UHGV virus genome: UHGV-1366990
Strand: one strand, 5' to 3'
DNA length: 64,000 nt
From: a virus
Made by a program: the position numbers and the translations under genes. This document shows positions 15,538 to 47,952 of the stretch, piece by piece. The stretch's first letter is position 1. Each line of letters starts with the position of its first letter. The notes below the pieces were generated by a model. It had not been told where the DNA came from and ran no database searches. It saw only the letters and a list, made by a program, of their open reading frames with translations.

Positions 15538-15626
15538 TGGCGGAAGGTGAAGGATTCGAACCTTCGGGGGCTAAAAGCCCCACTCGATTAGCAGTCGAGT
15601 CCCTTAAACCTCTCGGGCAACCTTCC
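15538..15626 (-). tRNA. tRNA-Ser (anticodon GCU), type II with long variable arm, CCA encoded
   Basis: Hand-folded: acceptor GGAAGGT/ACCTTCC, anticodon stem CTCGA/TCGAG, loop CTGCTAA, variable stem GGGGC/GCCCC, T-arm GAAGG-TTCGAAT-CCTTC. Confidence 0.85.
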
Positions 15627-15847
15627 AATTTGGACGGGCTTCACACCCGATTGAGCATTTGATCTGCCGTAGCCCAACTCCCCGCGCTTCTCAGCGCCGA
15701 TTGGTTAACTGGCGACCAGTGCCTTCTGGTTCGATCTCCTGGAACTTTACAGGCTTTGCGCCCGACCATTTCTGGAAGTTGGGGCATCGTTTCCGATGCG
15801 GAGTCATCCCCATTTTATACACAGCTGGCTGCAACGCTTACTGTGTT

Positions 15848-15891
15848 TGGTGTGAGTGGATGGATTCGAACCACCGCGCTGTTACACTCAC
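15848..15891 (-). other. tRNA-like minihelix: acceptor-like stem plus canonical T-arm and encoded CCA, no D or anticodon arm
   Basis: GTGAGTG...GGTGG-TTCGAAT-CCATC-CACTCAC-A-CCA on minus strand. Confidence 0.25.
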
Positions 15892-16148
15892 ATTTGGTCT
15901 GCCGCTGTGTGCTGGGCCACGCTCGAGGACATCGGCCATCCTTCCTCAGCTAATCCACGCAGCGGTAGATTTGTATCAGAGTGTCCGGTGTAGCAACCCG
16001 TGAGGTGCGCACTACTGTAGCCTCTACACTCTGAATTTGGTGGGCGCTACTATCGTCGTCTTCGGATTCCGTTCGGCTATTGGACAGAGGCTTGGAGCTT
16101 GTCGGTCGCGTACTTTATGCCTATTCACTTTCGTTCACACCCATTGTC

Positions 16149-16224
16149 TGGCGACGATGGCAGGACTTGAACCTGCGACATACGGTTTAACAGACCGCCG
16201 TTCTACCGACTGAACTACATCGTC
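16149..16224 (-). tRNA. tRNA-Asn (anticodon GUU), CCA encoded
   Basis: Hand-folded: acceptor GACGATG/CATCGTC, D-arm GTTC-AGTCGGTA-GAAC, anticodon loop CTGTTAA, T-arm GCAGG-TTCAAGT-CCTGC. Confidence 0.85.
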
Positions 16225-16395
16225 TTGCAAATCACTATACCATATAAAGTTTATTGAACAAACATTTATTTTACAACAAACTGTATTGGCGGGGTCTGAG
16301 GCTTTTCACCTCACCTGCTGGGTTTGGCCGCCCAGCCGTTCTCTATGAGGATTCACTGTCCGGACAGCTATCCATTAAACTATCGCCCCTCAATA

Positions 16396-16472
16396 TGGTG
16401 ATCCTGATTGGGTTTGAACCAATGACCAATGAATTATGAGTTCACTGCTCTAACCGACTGAGCTACAGGACC
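16396..16472 (-). tRNA. tRNA-Met (anticodon CAU; initiator/elongator/Ile-lysidine not distinguished), CCA encoded
   Basis: Hand-folded: acceptor GGTCCTG/CAGGATC, D-arm GCTC-AGTCGGTTA-GAGC, anticodon loop CTCATAA, T-arm ATTGG-TTCAAAC-CCAAT. Confidence 0.85.
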
Positions 16473-41186: not shown

Positions 41187-41882
41187 ATGGCCAGACCATT
41201 TGAAAATTACTTCTACCATGATTCATTGATGAAATACATCAATCTGTTTGCCACCATTATGTCTGATCTGAAGGTGAACACAGAGCGTGGTCTTATGGAA
41301 GTCCCATTACACATGGCCATCGGGAGACGCAATGACCTCAACAGGAACGTGCCGTCCAACATGCTTCCATTTGCGACCTTCTCTTTTGGTCAGTTTGAGA
41401 TCAACAAACAGGTGACGAAGACGTACCACAATCGACAATCGACACCAACAGCAGGGGCGAAGCAGCGAATCCCCCTGATTATCGATTTTGAGTACAATAT
41501 CCGAACCAAGAAATTGGTTGAGATGTTACAGGTGCTAGAGCAGGTTTATTCGGTATTCACTCCCTCTCTAGACTGTGGTATCAAGGACAACGATACACTA
41601 CAGCAAGACCAGAAGATCAAGATCCAACTGGTCAGCCACCAGATGTCCGATAACTGGGAAGGGGATGCTTCTGATTCACCACACGTCGACTGCTCCTTCA
41701 TGTTCCAGCTGAGCGGCTTCATCTACGGATATGACTATTGGGTGGACAACGAGGGAGGCGGGGATCCTAACGGGATCAAAGAGATAATTATCGAAATGTC
41801 TAATGATTTGAAAACACCGTGGACGGAACTGCCGGAGTGGTTCCGTGTTGACAAAGACGGTGTACATCATCCTGGAGATTGA
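41187..41882 (+). CDS. gp15: tail completion / sheath stabiliser (gp15-like)
   Basis: N-terminus FYHDSLMKYINLFATIMSDL resembles T4 gp15 FYNSSFRRYATLMGDLFS; GGAGA RBS. Confidence 0.65.
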   Translation: MARPFENYFYHDSLMKYINLFATIMSDLKVNTERGLMEVPLHMAIGRRNDLNRNVPSNMLPFATFSFGQFEINKQVTKTYHNRQSTPTAGAKQRIPLIIDFEYNIRTKKLVEMLQVLEQVYSVFTPSLDCGIKDNDTLQQDQKIKIQLVSHQMSDNWEGDASDSPHVDCSFMFQLSGFIYGYDYWVDNEGGGDPNGIKEIIIEMSNDLKTPWTELPEWFRVDKDGVHHPGD

Positions 41883-41884
41883 TT

Positions 41885-42592
41885 ATGAGTGCTATGTCAG
41901 AACGCCTATTATCCACCCTCAGTGCTATCCAAGCGCGGGATGAGGTCGCTCAAGAAGTCATGGAGAAGACCTCGCCTATGGCCAGAAAAGATTACGATCC
42001 GGATACAGGCGAATGGTTGGGTGAAAAGCCTGCGGGGTATGAGCCTGTGGTGTTTCCTCCTTCATTGGACCCAGAAGAGCTGAAGCCCAAGGAGTCTAAG
42101 GTTCCAGACTTCGAAGACACTGATGCCACCACCGACTACAAACGCATCCGTGACACGACTTATGCCATGCAGGAAGCCACGATGTTCATGATGGGACAGG
42201 CAGCCAAACTTGCGACGACGACTGAAGCACCCCGTGCCTTCACAGTCTTCAAAGAGTTGGGTGAACTCATGCGCGGCCTGAACAAAGACCTGATGGAGAA
42301 CCAGAAAACTATCAAGGCGGTCACGGGCGACAGAGAGCCACCTCCTGGAGATGAAACAACCGTCGAGGTCACCACGTCCCCTGATGGCACAACCACGGTC
42401 AACGTCGGTAAACAGGCCAGGTCTTCCCGTGATCTACTGAAGACCATCGAAGACGCCCGTAAACGTGCTGAAGAACGTGCTGCAGCGAAAGCTGCGTCCA
42501 AAGGACCTGATCCCGAAGAAGATGTAATCGACGTTCAGGCCGAGCCGCAGCCGAAGGAAGAAGGTGAAGACAATGGCGTATCAGAAGCGTGA
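41885..42592 (+). CDS. terminase small subunit (gp16-like)
   Basis: 236 aa directly upstream of and overlapping terminase large subunit; charged C-terminus; GGAG RBS. Confidence 0.55.
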   Translation: MSAMSERLLSTLSAIQARDEVAQEVMEKTSPMARKDYDPDTGEWLGEKPAGYEPVVFPPSLDPEELKPKESKVPDFEDTDATTDYKRIRDTTYAMQEATMFMMGQAAKLATTTEAPRAFTVFKELGELMRGLNKDLMENQKTIKAVTGDREPPPGDETTVEVTTSPDGTTTVNVGKQARSSRDLLKTIEDARKRAEERAAAKAASKGPDPEEDVIDVQAEPQPKEEGEDNGVSEA

Positions 42593-44783
42593 TGTAGAAT
42601 ACGCCCCACTCAAGACGGGGTTTAAGACAGAAGACGTCAGACTGCGTATGGACCAAACGTTCATGCGCAAGCCGTCTGTGCGCGCTCCTCGTGTGGAGTT
42701 GATGCTAACAGATGAGCAGGAATCGGAGTTCGTCGAGTGCGCGATGGACGCCCATTACTTCGCCGCCAACTACTACAAGATCACGACCATCGATAAAGGC
42801 TTCATCCTCTTTGACATGCACGATTACCAGAAGCAGTTGTTCCATGACTTCCAGGACTATCGATTCAATGCGGTCGTCCAGGCTCGTCAGTCTGGGAAAT
42901 GTGTAAAAGGTGACACGCTTGTCACAGTTTACGATACTCTCAGCCAAGAGCAGTTGCTCCTGACCATAGGGGAGCTTCACAGCCGCTTCGAGGACGTCAA
43001 TCACGCTGTGCCGCTGAATACCATTGGCAACCATGACAAGTTCGTGGACAGCCGCTTCGGCAAACGTTACTTTGTGCAATCCGATAGTGGCTGGGTTCCG
43101 GTTATCGCAGCGCATAAGACGAAGAAATATGCGGAATTCGTTATTGTGACTGTTACTGGGCGGCGAATTAACGTGGCCGACGAACATATATTCTTCACTC
43201 CGGAAATGAAGGAGATATTTGCCAAAGACCTGAATGCTGGGTCATACATCATGACGTCAGAAGGTCCAGAAGAAATCCGTGAGGTTTGGCAGACTGGTGA
43301 GACGCATCACATGTATGACCTACAGGTGAAATCTAGTGATCAGCGCTACTACACCAACGGCTTCCTCAGCCACAACACGACAGTCGTGGCAGCGTTCCTG
43401 CTCTGGTATGCGATGTTCCACTCCGACAAAGAGATCGCAGTACTGGCGAACAAAGAGAAGCAGGCGATTGAAATCCTAGATCGTATTCGCAAAGCATATC
43501 AAGATTTGCCATTCTTCCTCCAACAGGGTTGTGAGAAGTTCGGTTCCACGCTGATAGAGTTCGAAAACGGATCAAAGATCTACGCCTATGCGACATCTTC
43601 CGACTCCATCCGTGGTCGATCTGTATCGCTCCTGTATGTGGACGAAGTGGCGTTCATTGAAAACGACTTTGAATTCTGGGAGTCTACATTCCCGGCGATT
43701 GCATCTGCAGAGACTTCACGTTGTATTCTGACCAGTACGCCGAAAGGTCAGCGCGGGTTGTTCTACGACATCGTCACCAAGGCGAACCCAGAACACCCAC
43801 AATACAACGACTTCAAACTCACCGAGGTCCCATGGTATCGTGTTCCAACGTACACCAAAGATCCAGACTGGGAATCCAAACAGAGGGCGAAGCTGGGTGA
43901 TGCACGTTTCGATCAAGAATTTGGCATTAAGTTCCGTGGTTCTGTGGGATCACTGATACCTGCCAAGTGTCTGGACAAGATGACCTCGAAGCTGTATCAG
44001 GAGCCGAACGAGTTCACCAAGATTTATCACGACTACGATCCCAAACGCATCTATATGGGTATCGCAGATACAGGCAAGGGTGTCGAAGGGGATTATTCTG
44101 TACTGACCATTATCGACATCACAGACTATCCTCACAAGATCGCAGCCAAGTATCGAAATAACACGATACCTCCAATGATGTACGCGTACACAATCGCCGA
44201 TATGGGCGAGAAGTATGGAACGTGCCCGATGCTAGTCGAGACTAACAACGACGTGGGTGGTCAGGTAATCACAATTCTATACCAGGAAATTGAATATCCA
44301 GAGATCATCTTCACTACAACAGATACCAAGGGTACAGGCAAAAGAATCGGTGGTCGCCGCCCTGAGCCTGGTATCAATACCAACAAGAAGGTGCGCACAA
44401 ACGGCTGTGCCAACCTGAAAGCCCTGATTGAACGTGAAATGCTGGTGATAGATGACCAGGACACGATAGATGAACTCAGTACATTCGTATGGACTGGAAC
44501 AAGGTATGAAGCCGATGATGGTTGTCATGATGACTGTGTAATGCCCCTCGTGTTGTATGCATGGGCGGTGAAACAAGAATGGTTTAGTGATCTCACCAAT
44601 TCAAATATCTCTGTGGACATGAGAGGACGGTTGTCTGCGATGGAAGAATCTCAGATGCTACCATTTGGGGGTATGATGTCGACGCCAGATCCTCACTCTG
44701 TGGAGAACATCCCAGGGTTCGGTGGAATTCAGGTTTATGATGAACGCTCTGGTGTGTCTATGGAAGAATGGCTGAGACGGTGA
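42573..44783 (+). CDS. gp17: terminase large subunit (gp17-like), interrupted by a mini-intein
   Basis: Walker A QARQSGK|..intein..|TTVVAAFLLWYAMF; ATPase then nuclease region; overlaps small subunit gene. Confidence 0.9.
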   Translation: MAYQKRDVEYAPLKTGFKTEDVRLRMDQTFMRKPSVRAPRVELMLTDEQESEFVECAMDAHYFAANYYKITTIDKGFILFDMHDYQKQLFHDFQDYRFNAVVQARQSGKCVKGDTLVTVYDTLSQEQLLLTIGELHSRFEDVNHAVPLNTIGNHDKFVDSRFGKRYFVQSDSGWVPVIAAHKTKKYAEFVIVTVTGRRINVADEHIFFTPEMKEIFAKDLNAGSYIMTSEGPEEIREVWQTGETHHMYDLQVKSSDQRYYTNGFLSHNTTVVAAFLLWYAMFHSDKEIAVLANKEKQAIEILDRIRKAYQDLPFFLQQGCEKFGSTLIEFENGSKIYAYATSSDSIRGRSVSLLYVDEVAFIENDFEFWESTFPAIASAETSRCILTSTPKGQRGLFYDIVTKANPEHPQYNDFKLTEVPWYRVPTYTKDPDWESKQRAKLGDARFDQEFGIKFRGSVGSLIPAKCLDKMTSKLYQEPNEFTKIYHDYDPKRIYMGIADTGKGVEGDYSVLTIIDITDYPHKIAAKYRNNTIPPMMYAYTIADMGEKYGTCPMLVETNNDVGGQVITILYQEIEYPEIIFTTTDTKGTGKRIGGRRPEPGINTNKKVRTNGCANLKALIEREMLVIDDQDTIDELSTFVWTGTRYEADDGCHDDCVMPLVLYAWAVKQEWFSDLTNSNISVDMRGRLSAMEESQMLPFGGMMSTPDPHSVENIPGFGGIQVYDERSGVSMEEWLRR
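42900..43376 (+). other. mini-intein (159 aa) inserted in terminase P-loop: starts Cys, ends His-Asn, +1 residue Thr
   Basis: CVKGDTLVTV...YYTNGFLSHN|T; excision restores GKT; coordinates from residue count (C113-N271). Confidence 0.75.
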
Positions 44784-46773: not shown

Positions 46774-47076
46774 ATGAAAAGTTTTTCTCAATTTTTAGCA
46801 GAAGCAGGTCTAAAAGGTGACCTTCAGAAAGTTAAAGACTCCGTGATTGAATGGTTGGAAGACCAAGATGTAAGGCTCAAAAAGGGTGATATCGAAAATG
46901 GAGTATTTGGAGATTTCTTCCGCATAACCATTGATGATTTTGAATATACATATAATGGCAAAGAGATTAAAGTATTCGACCTGAAGAAAGATAAACAGGT
47001 TGTTAGCAAGGCTGCTGGAACTCGAGAAGCCCCAGGTGAACTCGGTAAATTGTTTAAGAAATACAGCAAAGTGTAA
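46774..47076 (+). CDS. hypothetical protein (100 aa)
   Basis: GAGG RBS; followed by strong terminator. Confidence 0.5.
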   Translation: MKSFSQFLAEAGLKGDLQKVKDSVIEWLEDQDVRLKKGDIENGVFGDFFRITIDDFEYTYNGKEIKVFDLKKDKQVVSKAAGTREAPGELGKLFKKYSKV

Positions 47077-47080
47077 CAAG

Positions 47081-47110
47081 ACCCCGCTTCGGCGGGGTTT
47101 TAAATTTTTC
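47081..47110 (+). terminator. intrinsic terminator ACCCCGCTTCGGCGGGGTTTT
   Basis: Perfect GC hairpin with TTCG loop and T-run. Confidence 0.6.
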
Positions 47111-47131
47111 CAGATTATTTTATTGAATTAC

Positions 47132-47159
47132 TTTACTTCTTCAATAACTCACGTATAAT
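47132..47159 (+). promoter_or_regulatory. sigma70-type early promoter (-35 TTTACT, 16 nt, -10 TATAAT) with conserved leader
   Basis: Second copy of the conserved promoter/leader element. Confidence 0.4.
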
Positions 47160-47207
47160 TCTAAACATAAGCAGTACGACACCAACTTGAAACGAAGGAT
47201 CTATATC

Positions 47208-47564
47208 ATGACCAAGACCGAAATTAACGCTATCCTGAAAGAAATCGGCCTCTGTAACCTGAAACGCCGCATCAATCCTTACCAGCCTGCAAAGCCAGTA
47301 CGCGACAGCCAGGGAAAGATGATAAAAGGGATCTACTGTGCAGATGTTGGTCCAATGACGGTGACCAGTCCACACATTGACAGATTTAACGCTATTGTTG
47401 GGGAGTTTTGTGGTAAGGTTCTGGGTAAACTGTCTAATGATTTATGCTCCCCAGATACCAAAGTTGTAGCTTTCGGGAGCCACCTCGTCACCTTCCACCT
47501 CACCACCTTCCGTACCCACGGTGATTATCATGTGTATTATGCTCAGGTTAGCATTCGCAAATAG
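47208..47564 (+). CDS. hypothetical protein (118 aa)
   Basis: ATG inside conserved GAAGGATCTATATCATG context (track start 47187 is TTG). Confidence 0.5.
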   Translation: MTKTEINAILKEIGLCNLKRRINPYQPAKPVRDSQGKMIKGIYCADVGPMTVTSPHIDRFNAIVGEFCGKVLGKLSNDLCSPDTKVVAFGSHLVTFHLTTFRTHGDYHVYYAQVSIRK

Positions 47565-47570
47565 TAGTTT

Positions 47571-47598
47571 ACCCCGCTGAGGCGGGGTTTTAGTTTTC
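47571..47598 (+). terminator. intrinsic terminator ACCCCGCTGAGGCGGGGTTTT
   Basis: GC hairpin and T-run. Confidence 0.55.
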
Positions 47599-47602
47599 CA
47601 GT

Positions 47603-47878
47603 TCATACCGGATAAGACCACACCCCCCCCCAGATACACCCCAACCCGGTTTCTATCGCCAGTATATCCTCTGTTTTACCTTCTACATTGTATCCAAGTT
47701 TAAGGAATTTCTCTTTCCTGAGTTTACTATCAACCCAAGATCGGCATTCAGTTTCGGTCGTCGGGTTGTTATCCAACAAACCCGGATTGCGTTTCATCGT
47801 CCCCAGCATGAATGATTTACATTCGTCACTACAATACAACGCAGCCTTCCTGGTTGGGTGAACGGTTTGTGACAGCAT
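47603..47878 (-). pseudogene. internally deleted remnant of a homing-endonuclease-like gene (inverted paralog of 53901..55373)
   Basis: N-term RKAALYCSDECKSF and C-term GYNVEGKTEDILAIETGLGCIWG match both ends of the 490-aa protein; no RBS; contains G9 tract. Confidence 0.45.
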
Positions 47879-47952
47879 GAACAATTTTTATCGGGGAATG
47901 GCATAATAAATATCCTCACTTTGGAGTATTTTAACCCCCATTTATTTCAAAA

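Follow-up and report, generated by a model that had tools for sequence, protein, structure and literature searches.

Inteins inserted into the large subunit of the phage terminase (TerL) have been described in several phage lineages. A TerL intein was published in 2013 for Salmonella phages Maynard and Marshall (PMC3868846, PMC3853055; YP_008772116.1, 'intein') and in 2019 for Salmonella phage Mooltan (MH688040, PMC6486243) and Klebsiella phage Magnus (PMC6763660). The Lys/Thr junction of the Walker A motif (K/T) is the 'classic' P-loop intein site according to Kelley 2016 mBio (PMC5050341). Among mycobacteriophages, many TerL inteins carry endonuclease domains and splicing has been demonstrated, and Terminase_6 proteins have inteins at the C-motif only (PMC5050341). 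The Cat, AceL and GOS inteins are also derived from terminases and have Cys+1 (review table).

The window analysed here, a 64,000-nucleotide stretch of the virus genome UHGV-1366990, comes from an Agtrevirus-like phage of the Ackermannviridae, and its terL gene carries a 159-aa insert at the K/T point. The insert is very probably a mini-intein of class 1, HINT-folded and lacking a homing endonuclease, which excises to yield active TerL and is otherwise a selfish passenger. Because the inteins of Maynard, Marshall, Mooltan and Magnus have been published, with a GenBank mat_peptide at the same boundaries, a TerL intein of this type is already known. These four inteins share the gene, the K/T point and the 159-aa length with ours, at 74-76% amino acid identity, and the boundaries of the Mooltan mat_peptide 'intein' match the 477 nt in the window exactly. 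At the nucleotide level, the window allele is ~96% identical to alleles of the SE14/EP75 type and ~72% identical to those of the Maynard/Mooltan type; the GenBank record of phage LHE287, 99% identical to the window, is without intein annotation. We found neither a splicing assay nor an allele-exchange analysis in the Maynard, Marshall, Mooltan and Magnus papers.

More distant systems share the site or the fold. The mycobacteriophage TerL1-a inteins likewise follow the invariant Walker A Lys and precede a nucleophilic +1 Thr (PMC5050341), but their host is a Terminase_1 protein, whereas in the window the P-loop site of a Terminase_6 (T4 gp17-type) protein is occupied. The closest solved structures by profile and fold are gp41-1, VidaL and the Cat/AceL-TerL/GOS-TerL group (PDB 6qaz, 6vgv, 6dsl), which have in common with the window a block B of the form [A/S]-x-x-H and a block F/G of the form '...YDL.V....H.YYTNGI.SHN'. 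These inteins are naturally split and act in trans, in contrast to the contiguous, cis-acting intein of the window with its Thr+1, and identity is ~17-25%. The inteins of Delftia phage PhiW-14 and Agrobacterium phage Atu_ph07 belong to the same family (34-38% identity over the C-terminal 100 aa) and occupy the same GK/TT site. Their terL genes consist of two ORFs that break after ~43-45 intein residues, forming an atypical split intein, and the Atu_ph07 intein begins with Ser1 instead of the Cys1 found in the window. The PhiW-14 and Atu_ph07 records carry no intein annotation for these features.

The terL gene and the boundaries of its insert

A single ORF on the plus strand (42564-44783) in the ORF listing of the window spans terL together with the insert, and with one uninterrupted ORF a naturally split intein is ruled out. 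The 5' extension of this ORF reaches a GTG at 42564 that sits within the Shine-Dalgarno sequence GAAGGTGAAG. The ATG at 42573, with AGGTG upstream, is the start in all annotated relatives, including the LHE287 record in GenBank (99% identical). From this ATG, the precursor gene (42573-44783, plus strand, stop codon included) encodes 736 aa (84.5 kDa), and its start overlaps by 20 nt the upstream terS gene for a gp16-like small terminase (41879-42592, plus strand). The intein then corresponds to precursor residues 110-268. An earlier sequence-only reading had placed it at residues 113-271; the insert itself stands, but that numbering was built on the GTG at 42564. The precursor ORF matches Terminase_6N (E 2.9e-17) and Terminase_6C (E 1.2e-6) in Pfam, and gp13-gp23 synteny was found around terL. 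The host protein is a T4 gp17-type large terminase, with a predicted N-terminal Walker A ASCE ATPase and a predicted C-terminal RNaseH-like nuclease. Small ORFs are also present further downstream at 46774-47884, between the sheath and tail-tube genes.

The insert (42900-43376, plus strand) is 477 nt long, in frame and free of stops. The codons for QARQSGK (CAG GCT CGT CAG TCT GGG AAA) end at 42899, TGT at 42900-42902 encodes Cys1, and AGC CAC AAC (S-H-N) closes the insert at 43376; from 43377 the sequence continues ACG ACA GTC GTG (TTVV), with the +1 Thr codon at 43377-43379. The insert separates the Walker A Lys of TerL from the Thr that follows it (QARQSGK/TTVVAAF). The 109-aa N-extein (42573-42899, plus strand) ends in RFNAVVQARQSGK and contributes the first half of the P-loop with Lys as the -1 residue. 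The mini-intein extends from Cys1 to His158-Asn159 with a mass of 18.2 kDa, and the 468-aa C-extein (43377-44780, plus strand) opens with the +1 Thr (TTVVAAFLLWYAMF) that completes GK/T; it holds what remains of the ATPase domain as well as the RNaseH-like nuclease. Codons read at both junctions of the one ORF thus reproduce exactly the boundaries and the 159-aa length first claimed, and the Cys1, His-Asn end and +1 Thr that the claim relied on are all present in the sequence and conserved among homologues.

Two other interpretations of the region were rejected. A group I intron or other RNA element does not fit an insert that is in frame and coding, and an Rfam search of the window at gathering thresholds returned three tRNAs only (15.5-16.5 kb). 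An antisense ORF of 160 aa (42705-43187, minus strand) is interrupted by stops in Mooltan and May and was dismissed as a gene.

Fold and splicing motifs of the insert

The HINT-domain similarity anticipated for the insert was found, at levels far beyond chance, in Pfam, in profile searches against the PDB and in Foldseek searches with an AF2 model. The Pfam Intein_splicing match (E 1.6e-8) reached 35.0 bits, 0.8 bits short of the gathering cutoff of 35.8; TIGR01445 (intein_Nterm) scored 25.1 bits, over its cutoff of 24.5, and TIGR01443 (intein_Cterm) 14.1 bits, short of 15.6. A 22-sequence profile matched inteins only in the PDB, namely gp41-1 (1.5e-11), VidaL (1.5e-10) and the Cat TerL consensus (2.8e-8), followed by the CDC21, NrdJ-1 and DnaX inteins. 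The AF2 model of the insert (pLDDT 94.7, pTM 0.87) is one compact all-beta domain without a low-confidence insert, and its best 50 Foldseek matches in the PDB were intein or BIL HINT structures throughout, with VidaL first (E 2.4e-11, TM 0.76-0.83). No homing endonuclease domain matched the insert in Pfam even at E<=1. As a 159-aa single domain without an endonuclease match, the insert is a mini-intein, in agreement with the earlier argument that it leaves no room for a homing endonuclease. Mini-inteins measure ~130-200 aa and have no LAGLIDADG, HNH or GIY-YIG insertion separating block B from block F.

The same searches bear on whether the insert could be a BIL or Hedgehog-type HINT domain that cleaves without ligating. 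BIL2 structures appeared at Foldseek ranks 25, 33, 37 and 40, and PT-HINT, the sole other Pfam match to the insert at E<=1, was weakly matched (E 0.013). However, true inteins rank above BIL in Foldseek, the catalytic insertion site is strictly conserved, the +1 nucleophile is conserved, and exact empty-site homologues exist. Inteins are defined by this context, whereas BIL or Hog domains occur in variable protein regions and lack a strictly conserved +1 nucleophile and empty-site homologues. Cleavage without ligation would also leave the ATPase P-loop in two pieces and abolish an essential enzyme, and this explanation is therefore exceedingly improbable.

The splicing motifs of the mini-intein are conserved across its homologues. 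Block A (42900-42935, plus strand; CVKGDTLVTVYD) begins with the Cys1 nucleophile, which is invariant in 22 homologues, with V2 and T6 at least 90% conserved. In block B (43161-43196, plus strand; RRINVADEHIFF), A93-D94-x-H96 is invariant and Ala replaces the usual Thr of TxxH. Block F (43305-43355, plus strand; HHMYDLQVKSSDQRYYT) has invariant M138, D140, Y150 and T152, and block G (43356-43376, plus strand; NGFLSHN) invariant L156, S157, H158 and N159. Residues C1, A93, D94, H96, M138, D140, H158 and N159 are unchanged in the 22 aligned homologues at identities down to ~31%. All 26 intein-bearing homologues have the insertion at K/T, with Thr at +1 in 25 and Ser in one, and their inteins range from 150 to 181 aa. 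The insert thereby combines the features of class-1 inteins: HINT fold, Cys1, block-B His, block-F Asp, His-Asn, a +1 nucleophile and empty-site homologues.

Two positions depart from the textbook motif, the missing block-B Thr and the missing block-F His, and both departures are tolerated in known inteins. In the profile alignment with the PDB, block B of the window intein corresponds to 'CSEEH' of gp41-1 and 'CAFNH' of VidaL, and the solved structures of gp41-1, VidaL and Cat show the [A/S]xxH deviation as well. The block-F position is Gln in enterobacterial alleles and His in Vibrio-type alleles. The absent Thr, together with Pfam and TIGR C-terminal scores slightly under the curated cutoffs, might suggest a decayed, splicing-dead HINT remnant, either tolerated as a permanent TerL domain or leaving the gene non-functional. 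Against such a remnant, the catalytic residues are all invariant to ~31% identity with dN/dS well below 1, and gp41-1, VidaL and Cat, whose activity has been demonstrated by experiment, have A/S-x-x-H variants too. A permanent GK/T insert would be incompatible with nucleotide binding at the P-loop, and terL is single-copy and essential in lab-propagated lytic phages. We give this possibility very little credence.

Empty sites and the predicted splicing product

Intein-less homologues lack precisely the 159-aa block. Homologues of 575-581 aa with 73-85% identity (P0015-P0019) and Vibrio phages D493/K413 read QARQSGKTTVVAAF without interruption, and P0028-P0049 and T4 gp17 are likewise unbroken at GK/TT. 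At the DNA level, the syntenic empty loci L012 and L013 read ...GGT AAG/ACA ACT.... Removal of the insert from the window gives RQSGKTTVVAAF, as in these natural relatives, so the canonical GKT Walker A is rebuilt as the sequence-only reading had stated. The spliced sequence matches the T4 gp17 structures 3ezk and 3cpe at E 3e-72 and 5e-71, and its alignment with T4 gp17 is unbroken across the junction: RQsGKTTVVA of the spliced TerL aligns gap-free with RQlGKTTVVA of T4 (RQSGKTTVVAAF against T4 RQLGKTTVVAIF). Homologues were best recovered with full-length TerL as the query; the intein alone returned 2 proteins from a set of 5.8 billion, because full-length TerL entries dominate.

From established knowledge of inteins and P-loop ATPases, we infer the following chemistry. 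The 84.5-kDa precursor would be translated with its ATP-binding loop disrupted. An N-S acyl shift at Cys1, helped by block-B His96, would generate a thioester, and attack by the +1 Thr would give a branched intermediate. Cyclisation of Asn159, helped by His158 and Asp140, would then release the intein, and an O-N shift would join the exteins at a junction reading NAVVQARQSGKTTVVAAF. The expected products are a 66.3-kDa active TerL with RQSGKTTVV and a free 18.2-kDa intein. Known P-loop ATPases could not bind nucleotide with an insert between GK and T of Walker A, and P-loop biochemistry thus gives sound grounds to expect that splicing is required for packaging.

Proteomic data are available from one relative. 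In a published proteome of CsCl-purified virions of Kuttervirus Sajous1, all four TerL spectra (4/4) fall inside the intein and none crosses a junction. These spectra are few, and unspliced precursor could be their source. Trypsin cleaves behind the -1 Lys, and tryptic peptides would not reveal ligation. In the searched literature we found no experiment that demonstrates ligated TerL in any Ackermannviridae phage.

Distribution, selection and exchange of intein alleles

Among sequenced enterobacterial isolates of the Ackermannviridae the intein is fixed, but some close metagenomic relatives lack it. Of 254 terL matches in megablast, 251 are full length including the insert, and the other three have <80% coverage; 279 records have the intein at >=60% amino acid identity. 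The dN/dS ratios (0.03-0.22 for the intein, 0.005-0.09 for the exteins) indicate that the intein is evolving under purifying selection, and its dN is 3-18 times that of the exteins. Base composition (49.5% GC in the intein, 49.1% in the extein) gives no sign that the intein was recently acquired from outside the family.

This distribution raises the question of whether the intein has been co-opted, beyond a neutral passenger, as a conditional splicing switch that delays or gates the terminase ATPase during infection. Its presence in every sequenced enterobacterial Ackermannviridae isolate recovered, despite the lack of an endonuclease, would fit such a role, as would the purifying selection and the intein peptides in purified virions. 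However, in the extein tree, terL alleles without the intein are nested within those that carry it, and the packaging modules around them are fully syntenic, so TerL works without the intein. With a single Cys, the intein has no evident way of forming a disulfide or redox trap. Its dN exceeds that of the exteins by the factor given above, and the difficulty of deleting it precisely from the P-loop also accounts for its persistence. We found no evidence of any kind for condition-dependent splicing and consider a regulatory switch quite improbable; a selfish passenger that splices out remains our preferred reading.

Allele comparisons indicate that recombination shuffles the intein alleles between genera. 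In ~84 Kuttervirus genomes, the intein is ~96% identical at the nucleotide level to that of the window and the C-extein only ~78%, which indicates that alleles have crossed genus boundaries. The exchanged segment (42852-43300, plus strand) has ~97% nucleotide identity with the Kuttervirus SE14-type allele, compared to 76-86% in the flanking terL. The intein of phage LPST94 is a mosaic with a 227-nt patch from another allele that terminates at the C-junction, and splice junctions are start or end points of exchange tracts. The intein and extein trees differ. In some members of the family, terL is flanked by free-standing homing endonuclease genes (NUMOD3 in Limestonevirus, GIY-YIG in Kuttervirus), and the intein might still be spreading among co-infecting Ackermannviridae, driven in trans by such enzymes ('collaborative homing'), rather than being a stranded relic. 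We regard this scenario as unlikely on present data, and a trans-driven movement by GIY-YIG/NUMOD3 enzymes rather than ordinary homologous recombination is speculative.

The TerL intein affects how terminases of this family are annotated and compared. Many Ackermannviridae records, including that of LHE287, call the ORF just 'terminase large subunit', and the mature enzyme is predicted to have 577 aa, not 736. Because the intein and extein trees differ, phylogenies of unspliced sequences or terminase-based packaging predictions blend two histories. The locus is a further example of how strongly inteins favour ATPase P-loops. As a Thr+1 member of the fast gp41-1/VidaL/Cat group of phage inteins, it may, speculatively, be a candidate splicing tool. 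The Ackermannviridae offer a convenient, culturable E. coli/Salmonella phage system in which relatives with and without the intein, and two or more intein alleles, occur naturally, and such phages would allow testing how mini-inteins persist and move without an endonuclease of their own.

The Walker A insert and its host gene

The terminase large subunit gene (terL) of this phage carries an in-frame, stop-free insert of 477 nt (159 aa) at window positions 42900-43376 (+), between an N-extein at 42573..42899 and a C-extein at 43377..44780. A single long ORF at 42564..44783 (+) in the ORF listing spans it. The QARQSGK codons end at 42899, TGT (Cys) occupies 42900-42902, and AGC CAC AAC (Ser-His-Asn) ends at 43376, followed by ACG ACA GTC GTG (TTVV); the DNA thus bears out the coordinates, frame and flanking residues that a sequence-only reading had proposed for the insert. 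The ORF in that reading stands with respect to the insert but not to its start, because the GTG at 42564 falls within the Shine-Dalgarno sequence GAAGGTGAAG, and the ATG at 42573, 9 nt downstream, is the start in all annotated relatives. From this ATG the precursor has 736 aa (84.5 kDa), of which residues 110-268 are the intein, and the predicted splice products are a 577-aa TerL (66.3 kDa) and an 18.2-kDa intein. The small subunit gene terS ends at 42592, overlapping terL by 20 nt, and terL lies in the canonical module gp13-gp14-gp15-terS-terL-sheath-tube-portal-...-gp23. The window shares 99% identity with Escherichia phage LHE287 and 97.6% with Agtrevirus AV101, and the phage is a member of the Ackermannviridae. 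An antisense 160-aa ORF over the N-extein and intein (42705-43187, −) is interrupted by stops in the corresponding frames of phages Mooltan and May and is probably spurious. Three phage tRNA genes (Ser-GCT, Asn-GTT and Met-CAT) lie at 15538-16472 (−).

By profile and structure comparisons the insert is a true class-1 mini-intein, placed in a gp17-type terminase at the classic P-loop position. The Pfam model Intein_splicing matched the insert with an E value of 1.6e-8 (35.0 bits, 0.8 under the gathering cutoff); the NCBIfam model intein_Nterm scored above its cutoff (25.1 vs 24.5 bits) and intein_Cterm just below (14.1 vs 15.6 bits). PT-HINT was the sole other Pfam match at E<=1, with no endonuclease domain, in agreement with the proposed mini-intein of 159 aa free of a homing endonuclease. 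Among 120 TerL homologues collected, 26 inserts at the same place were taken out, all of which follow GK and precede T (S in one protein), measure 150-181 aa, begin with Cys and end with SHN. An alignment of 22 sequences, with identity down to 31%, has invariant C1, K47, F48, G64, T74 and Y77; A93, D94 and H96 of block B; M138, D140, Y150 and T152 of block F; and L156, S157, H158 and N159 of block G. The Cys1, terminal His-Asn and +1 Thr of the sequence-only reading are all present; Cys1 and the terminal His-Asn are invariant. The profile of this alignment matched only inteins in the PDB, namely gp41-1 (1.5e-11), VidaL (1.5e-10), the Cat consensus terminase split intein (2.8e-8), CDC21-1, NrdJ-1 and DnaX. 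An AlphaFold2 model from the same alignment is a single all-beta domain, predicted with confidence (pLDDT 94.7, pTM 0.87), and its top 50 Foldseek matches in the PDB are all inteins or BIL HINT domains, with VidaL the best (E 2.4e-11, TM 0.76-0.83). Lack of Hint-domain similarity, which the sequence-only reading had named as refuting evidence, is clearly contradicted by these matches. The family departs from the standard motifs at two positions: block B carries an invariant Ala in place of Thr (Ala also in VidaL, Ser in gp41-1 and Cat), and the block-F His of Vibrio-type alleles is Gln in enterobacterial ones.

In the host protein, Pfam places Terminase_6N (E 2.9e-17) and Terminase_6C (E 1.2e-6) on either side of the insert, and in silico removal gives a protein matching the T4 gp17 structures 3ezk and 3cpe (E 3e-72 and 5e-71). 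The alignment with T4 gp17 runs unbroken through the GKTTVV junction (vvqaRQsGKTTVVAaFL vs nlsRQlGKTTVVAiFL).

An intein at this site is already described, both annotated and published in sister phages. The 2013 announcement of Salmonella phage Maynard reported an intein interrupting the large terminase on the basis of Hint and intein-splice-site InterPro matches (PMC3868846; PMC3853055; Maynard/Marshall), and the nr entry "intein [Salmonella phage Maynard / Marshall]" (YP_008772116.1) is 76% identical. Mooltan is annotated with an "intein-containing terminase large subunit precursor" and a mat_peptide "intein" (2019; PMC6486243), whose boundaries correspond exactly to the 477 nt here. Klebsiella phage Magnus likewise has an intein in its large terminase (PMC6763660), and Kelley et al. 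(2016; PMC5050341) call the Lys/Thr position of the P-loop the "classic" place for intein insertion in ATPases, terminases among them. The modest new angles of our analysis are the pattern of allele exchange and the intein-only peptides.

Proposed splicing and virion peptides

We consider it very likely that the intein is a functional splicing element. Judged from sequence, its putative catalytic residues (Cys1, His96, Asp140, His158, Asn159 and Thr+1) match those of class-1 inteins. Splicing would proceed through an N-S acyl shift at the Lys-Cys1 bond, trans-esterification onto Thr+1, cyclisation of Asn159 and an O-N shift. From established P-loop biochemistry, an 18-kDa domain between the Walker A Lys and Thr would be incompatible with nucleotide binding; the unspliced precursor should therefore be inactive and, given intein biochemistry, splicing obligatory. 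No splicing test of this intein was found in the literature searched. Nei-Gojobori dN/dS, from pairs with unsaturated dS, is 0.03-0.22 for the intein and 0.005-0.09 for the exteins. The intein evolves several-fold faster than the terminase, and its constraint is consistent with a need to splice.

Published virion proteomics of Kuttervirus Sajous1 bear on this protein. LC-MS/MS of trypsin-digested, CsCl-purified virions gave four spectra for TerL (gp148): EYAEYVVR, RFEGPNHAVPLNTIGNHNK, FEGPNHAVPLNTIGNHNK and YFVESDTGWVPVIAAHK (PMC10892097, Supplementary Table S3). Sajous1 gp148 is the homologue of window 42573-44783, and all four spectra fall inside the intein (about residues 28-83); the 577 extein residues are not represented, and no spectrum spans a junction. 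The intein makes up 21.6% of the precursor, and the chance that three independent peptides all fall inside it is ~0.01. These few spectra are consistent with a stable excised intein co-purifying with virions, with the precursor also a possible source. Junction-contiguous peptides, which the sequence-only reading would count against an intein, are not among the four, and tryptic data are unable to prove ligation because trypsin cuts after the −1 Lys. The authors of that study did not comment on the intein-only TerL spectra.

Exchange of intein alleles between genera

The intein and its exteins have different histories. Compared with Kuttervirus SE14, nucleotide identity is 93.3% over the intein (dS 0.31) and only 86% and 76% over the N- and C-exteins (dS 1.4-2.4). 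The reverse holds for Agtrevirus Ag3, with exteins 87-91% and the intein only 78% identical (dN 0.164 for the intein vs 0.009), and between the two Kuttervirus phages SE14 and Mooltan, with exteins at 88-90% and inteins at only 72.5%. Intein and extein differences are distinct by Fisher test (p = 1e-21). The shared tract, at window 42852-43300, has 13 mismatches in 449 nt. Database-wide, 94 phage records match a 401-nt intein tract at >=95% identity, after which identity falls directly to 72-77%, and only 10 records reach >=95% over the C-extein; intein identities are bimodal, with one record between these two groups. The intein tract is ~96-97% identical to that of ~84 Kuttervirus genomes (SE14, EP75, selz and others) with C-exteins at ~78%, and the phages nearest in their exteins (Ag3, EspM4VN and Dickeya phages; 88-91%) reach only 74-78% over the intein. 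This pattern indicates that a mini-intein allele without an endonuclease has been exchanged across genera.

Salmonella phage LPST94 (L004, 2173-4384) has an SE14-type gene with a 227-nt Mooltan-type patch without mismatches. The patch (gene nt 571-797) is confined to the intein, stopping at its C-terminal splice junction, and the chimeric intein is evidently viable. The mismatch of intein and extein identities, together with this mosaic, indicates ongoing allelic replacement through recombination between co-infecting phages. Free-standing homing endonucleases are candidate helpers of allele movement, namely a Limestonevirus NUMOD3 ORF and Kuttervirus GIY-YIG genes near terL. The NUMOD3 motif, typical of free-standing homing endonucleases, occurs (E 1.3e-11) in a 292-aa ORF of the Limestonevirus Dickeya phage Ds25CZ (L006, 1309-2187) that lies between terS and terL, with the insertion point of the intein ~320 nt downstream; this ORF is absent from the window.

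Related inteins and empty sites

The same intein family occupies the GK/T site (splice junctions marked /) in distant T4-like phages, where it is sometimes split. Delftia phage PhiW-14 (L015, ~1100-1803) and Agrobacterium phage Atu_ph07 (L017, 983-3174; Ser1) carry split inteins at GK/TT and have terL in two ORFs, in contrast to the single ORF here. The first ORF comprises the N-extein and ~43-45 intein residues before stop codons, and the second comprises ~120-148 intein residues ending SHN/TT and the C-extein. Neither record has an intein annotation, and the N-terminal part in PhiW-14 is wholly unannotated. The intein of Campylobacter phage CP21 (L016, 994-2205) lies in the P-loop three residues earlier (PRQ/C...SHN/SSKSTT); its ORF ends within a second intein starting at FRGFS/C, and homologues P0057 and P0059 have an intein at the equivalent RGRS/C site. 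In P0066 (Vibrio phage VP-1), P0083 (Vibrio phage K469), P0052, P0061, P0076, P0087 and P0090, the ATPase domain is followed by a GIY-YIG (± NUMOD3) endonuclease at ~aa 330-590, Terminase_6C is missing, and some also have a P-loop intein. The layout of these ORFs suggests that a homing endonuclease gene has divided terL, separating the ATPase half from the nuclease half. Three further TerL-like proteins (P0044, P0046 and P0072), with apparent starts inside the intein and block F (...DLQVDS..HRYYT) at ~residue 100, could be split-intein C-halves or truncated gene calls.

Natural empty sites confirm that removing the insert rebuilds Walker A. In five close relatives (P0015-P0019; 575-581 aa, 73-85% identical), QARQSGKTTVVAAFLLWYAM stands uninterrupted on contigs with gp13-gp20 synteny kept, with empty-site DNA of ...CAG TCA GGT AAG/ACA ACT GTC GTG..., and many more distant TerLs are likewise contiguous. 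The intein-less terL genes of Logan metagenome contigs L012 (1660-3390), L013 and L014 (4001-5746), in fully syntenic gp13-gp20 modules, are 73-76% identical in nucleotides to the exteins here; among isolated phages, the nearest terL genes without the intein are those of Vibrio phages D493 and K413. In an extein neighbour-joining tree (without bootstrap), sequences without the intein fall at scattered places among those that carry it, a pattern suggestive of several gains or losses. TerL therefore works without the intein, and such a sporadic distribution would be expected for a selfish element.
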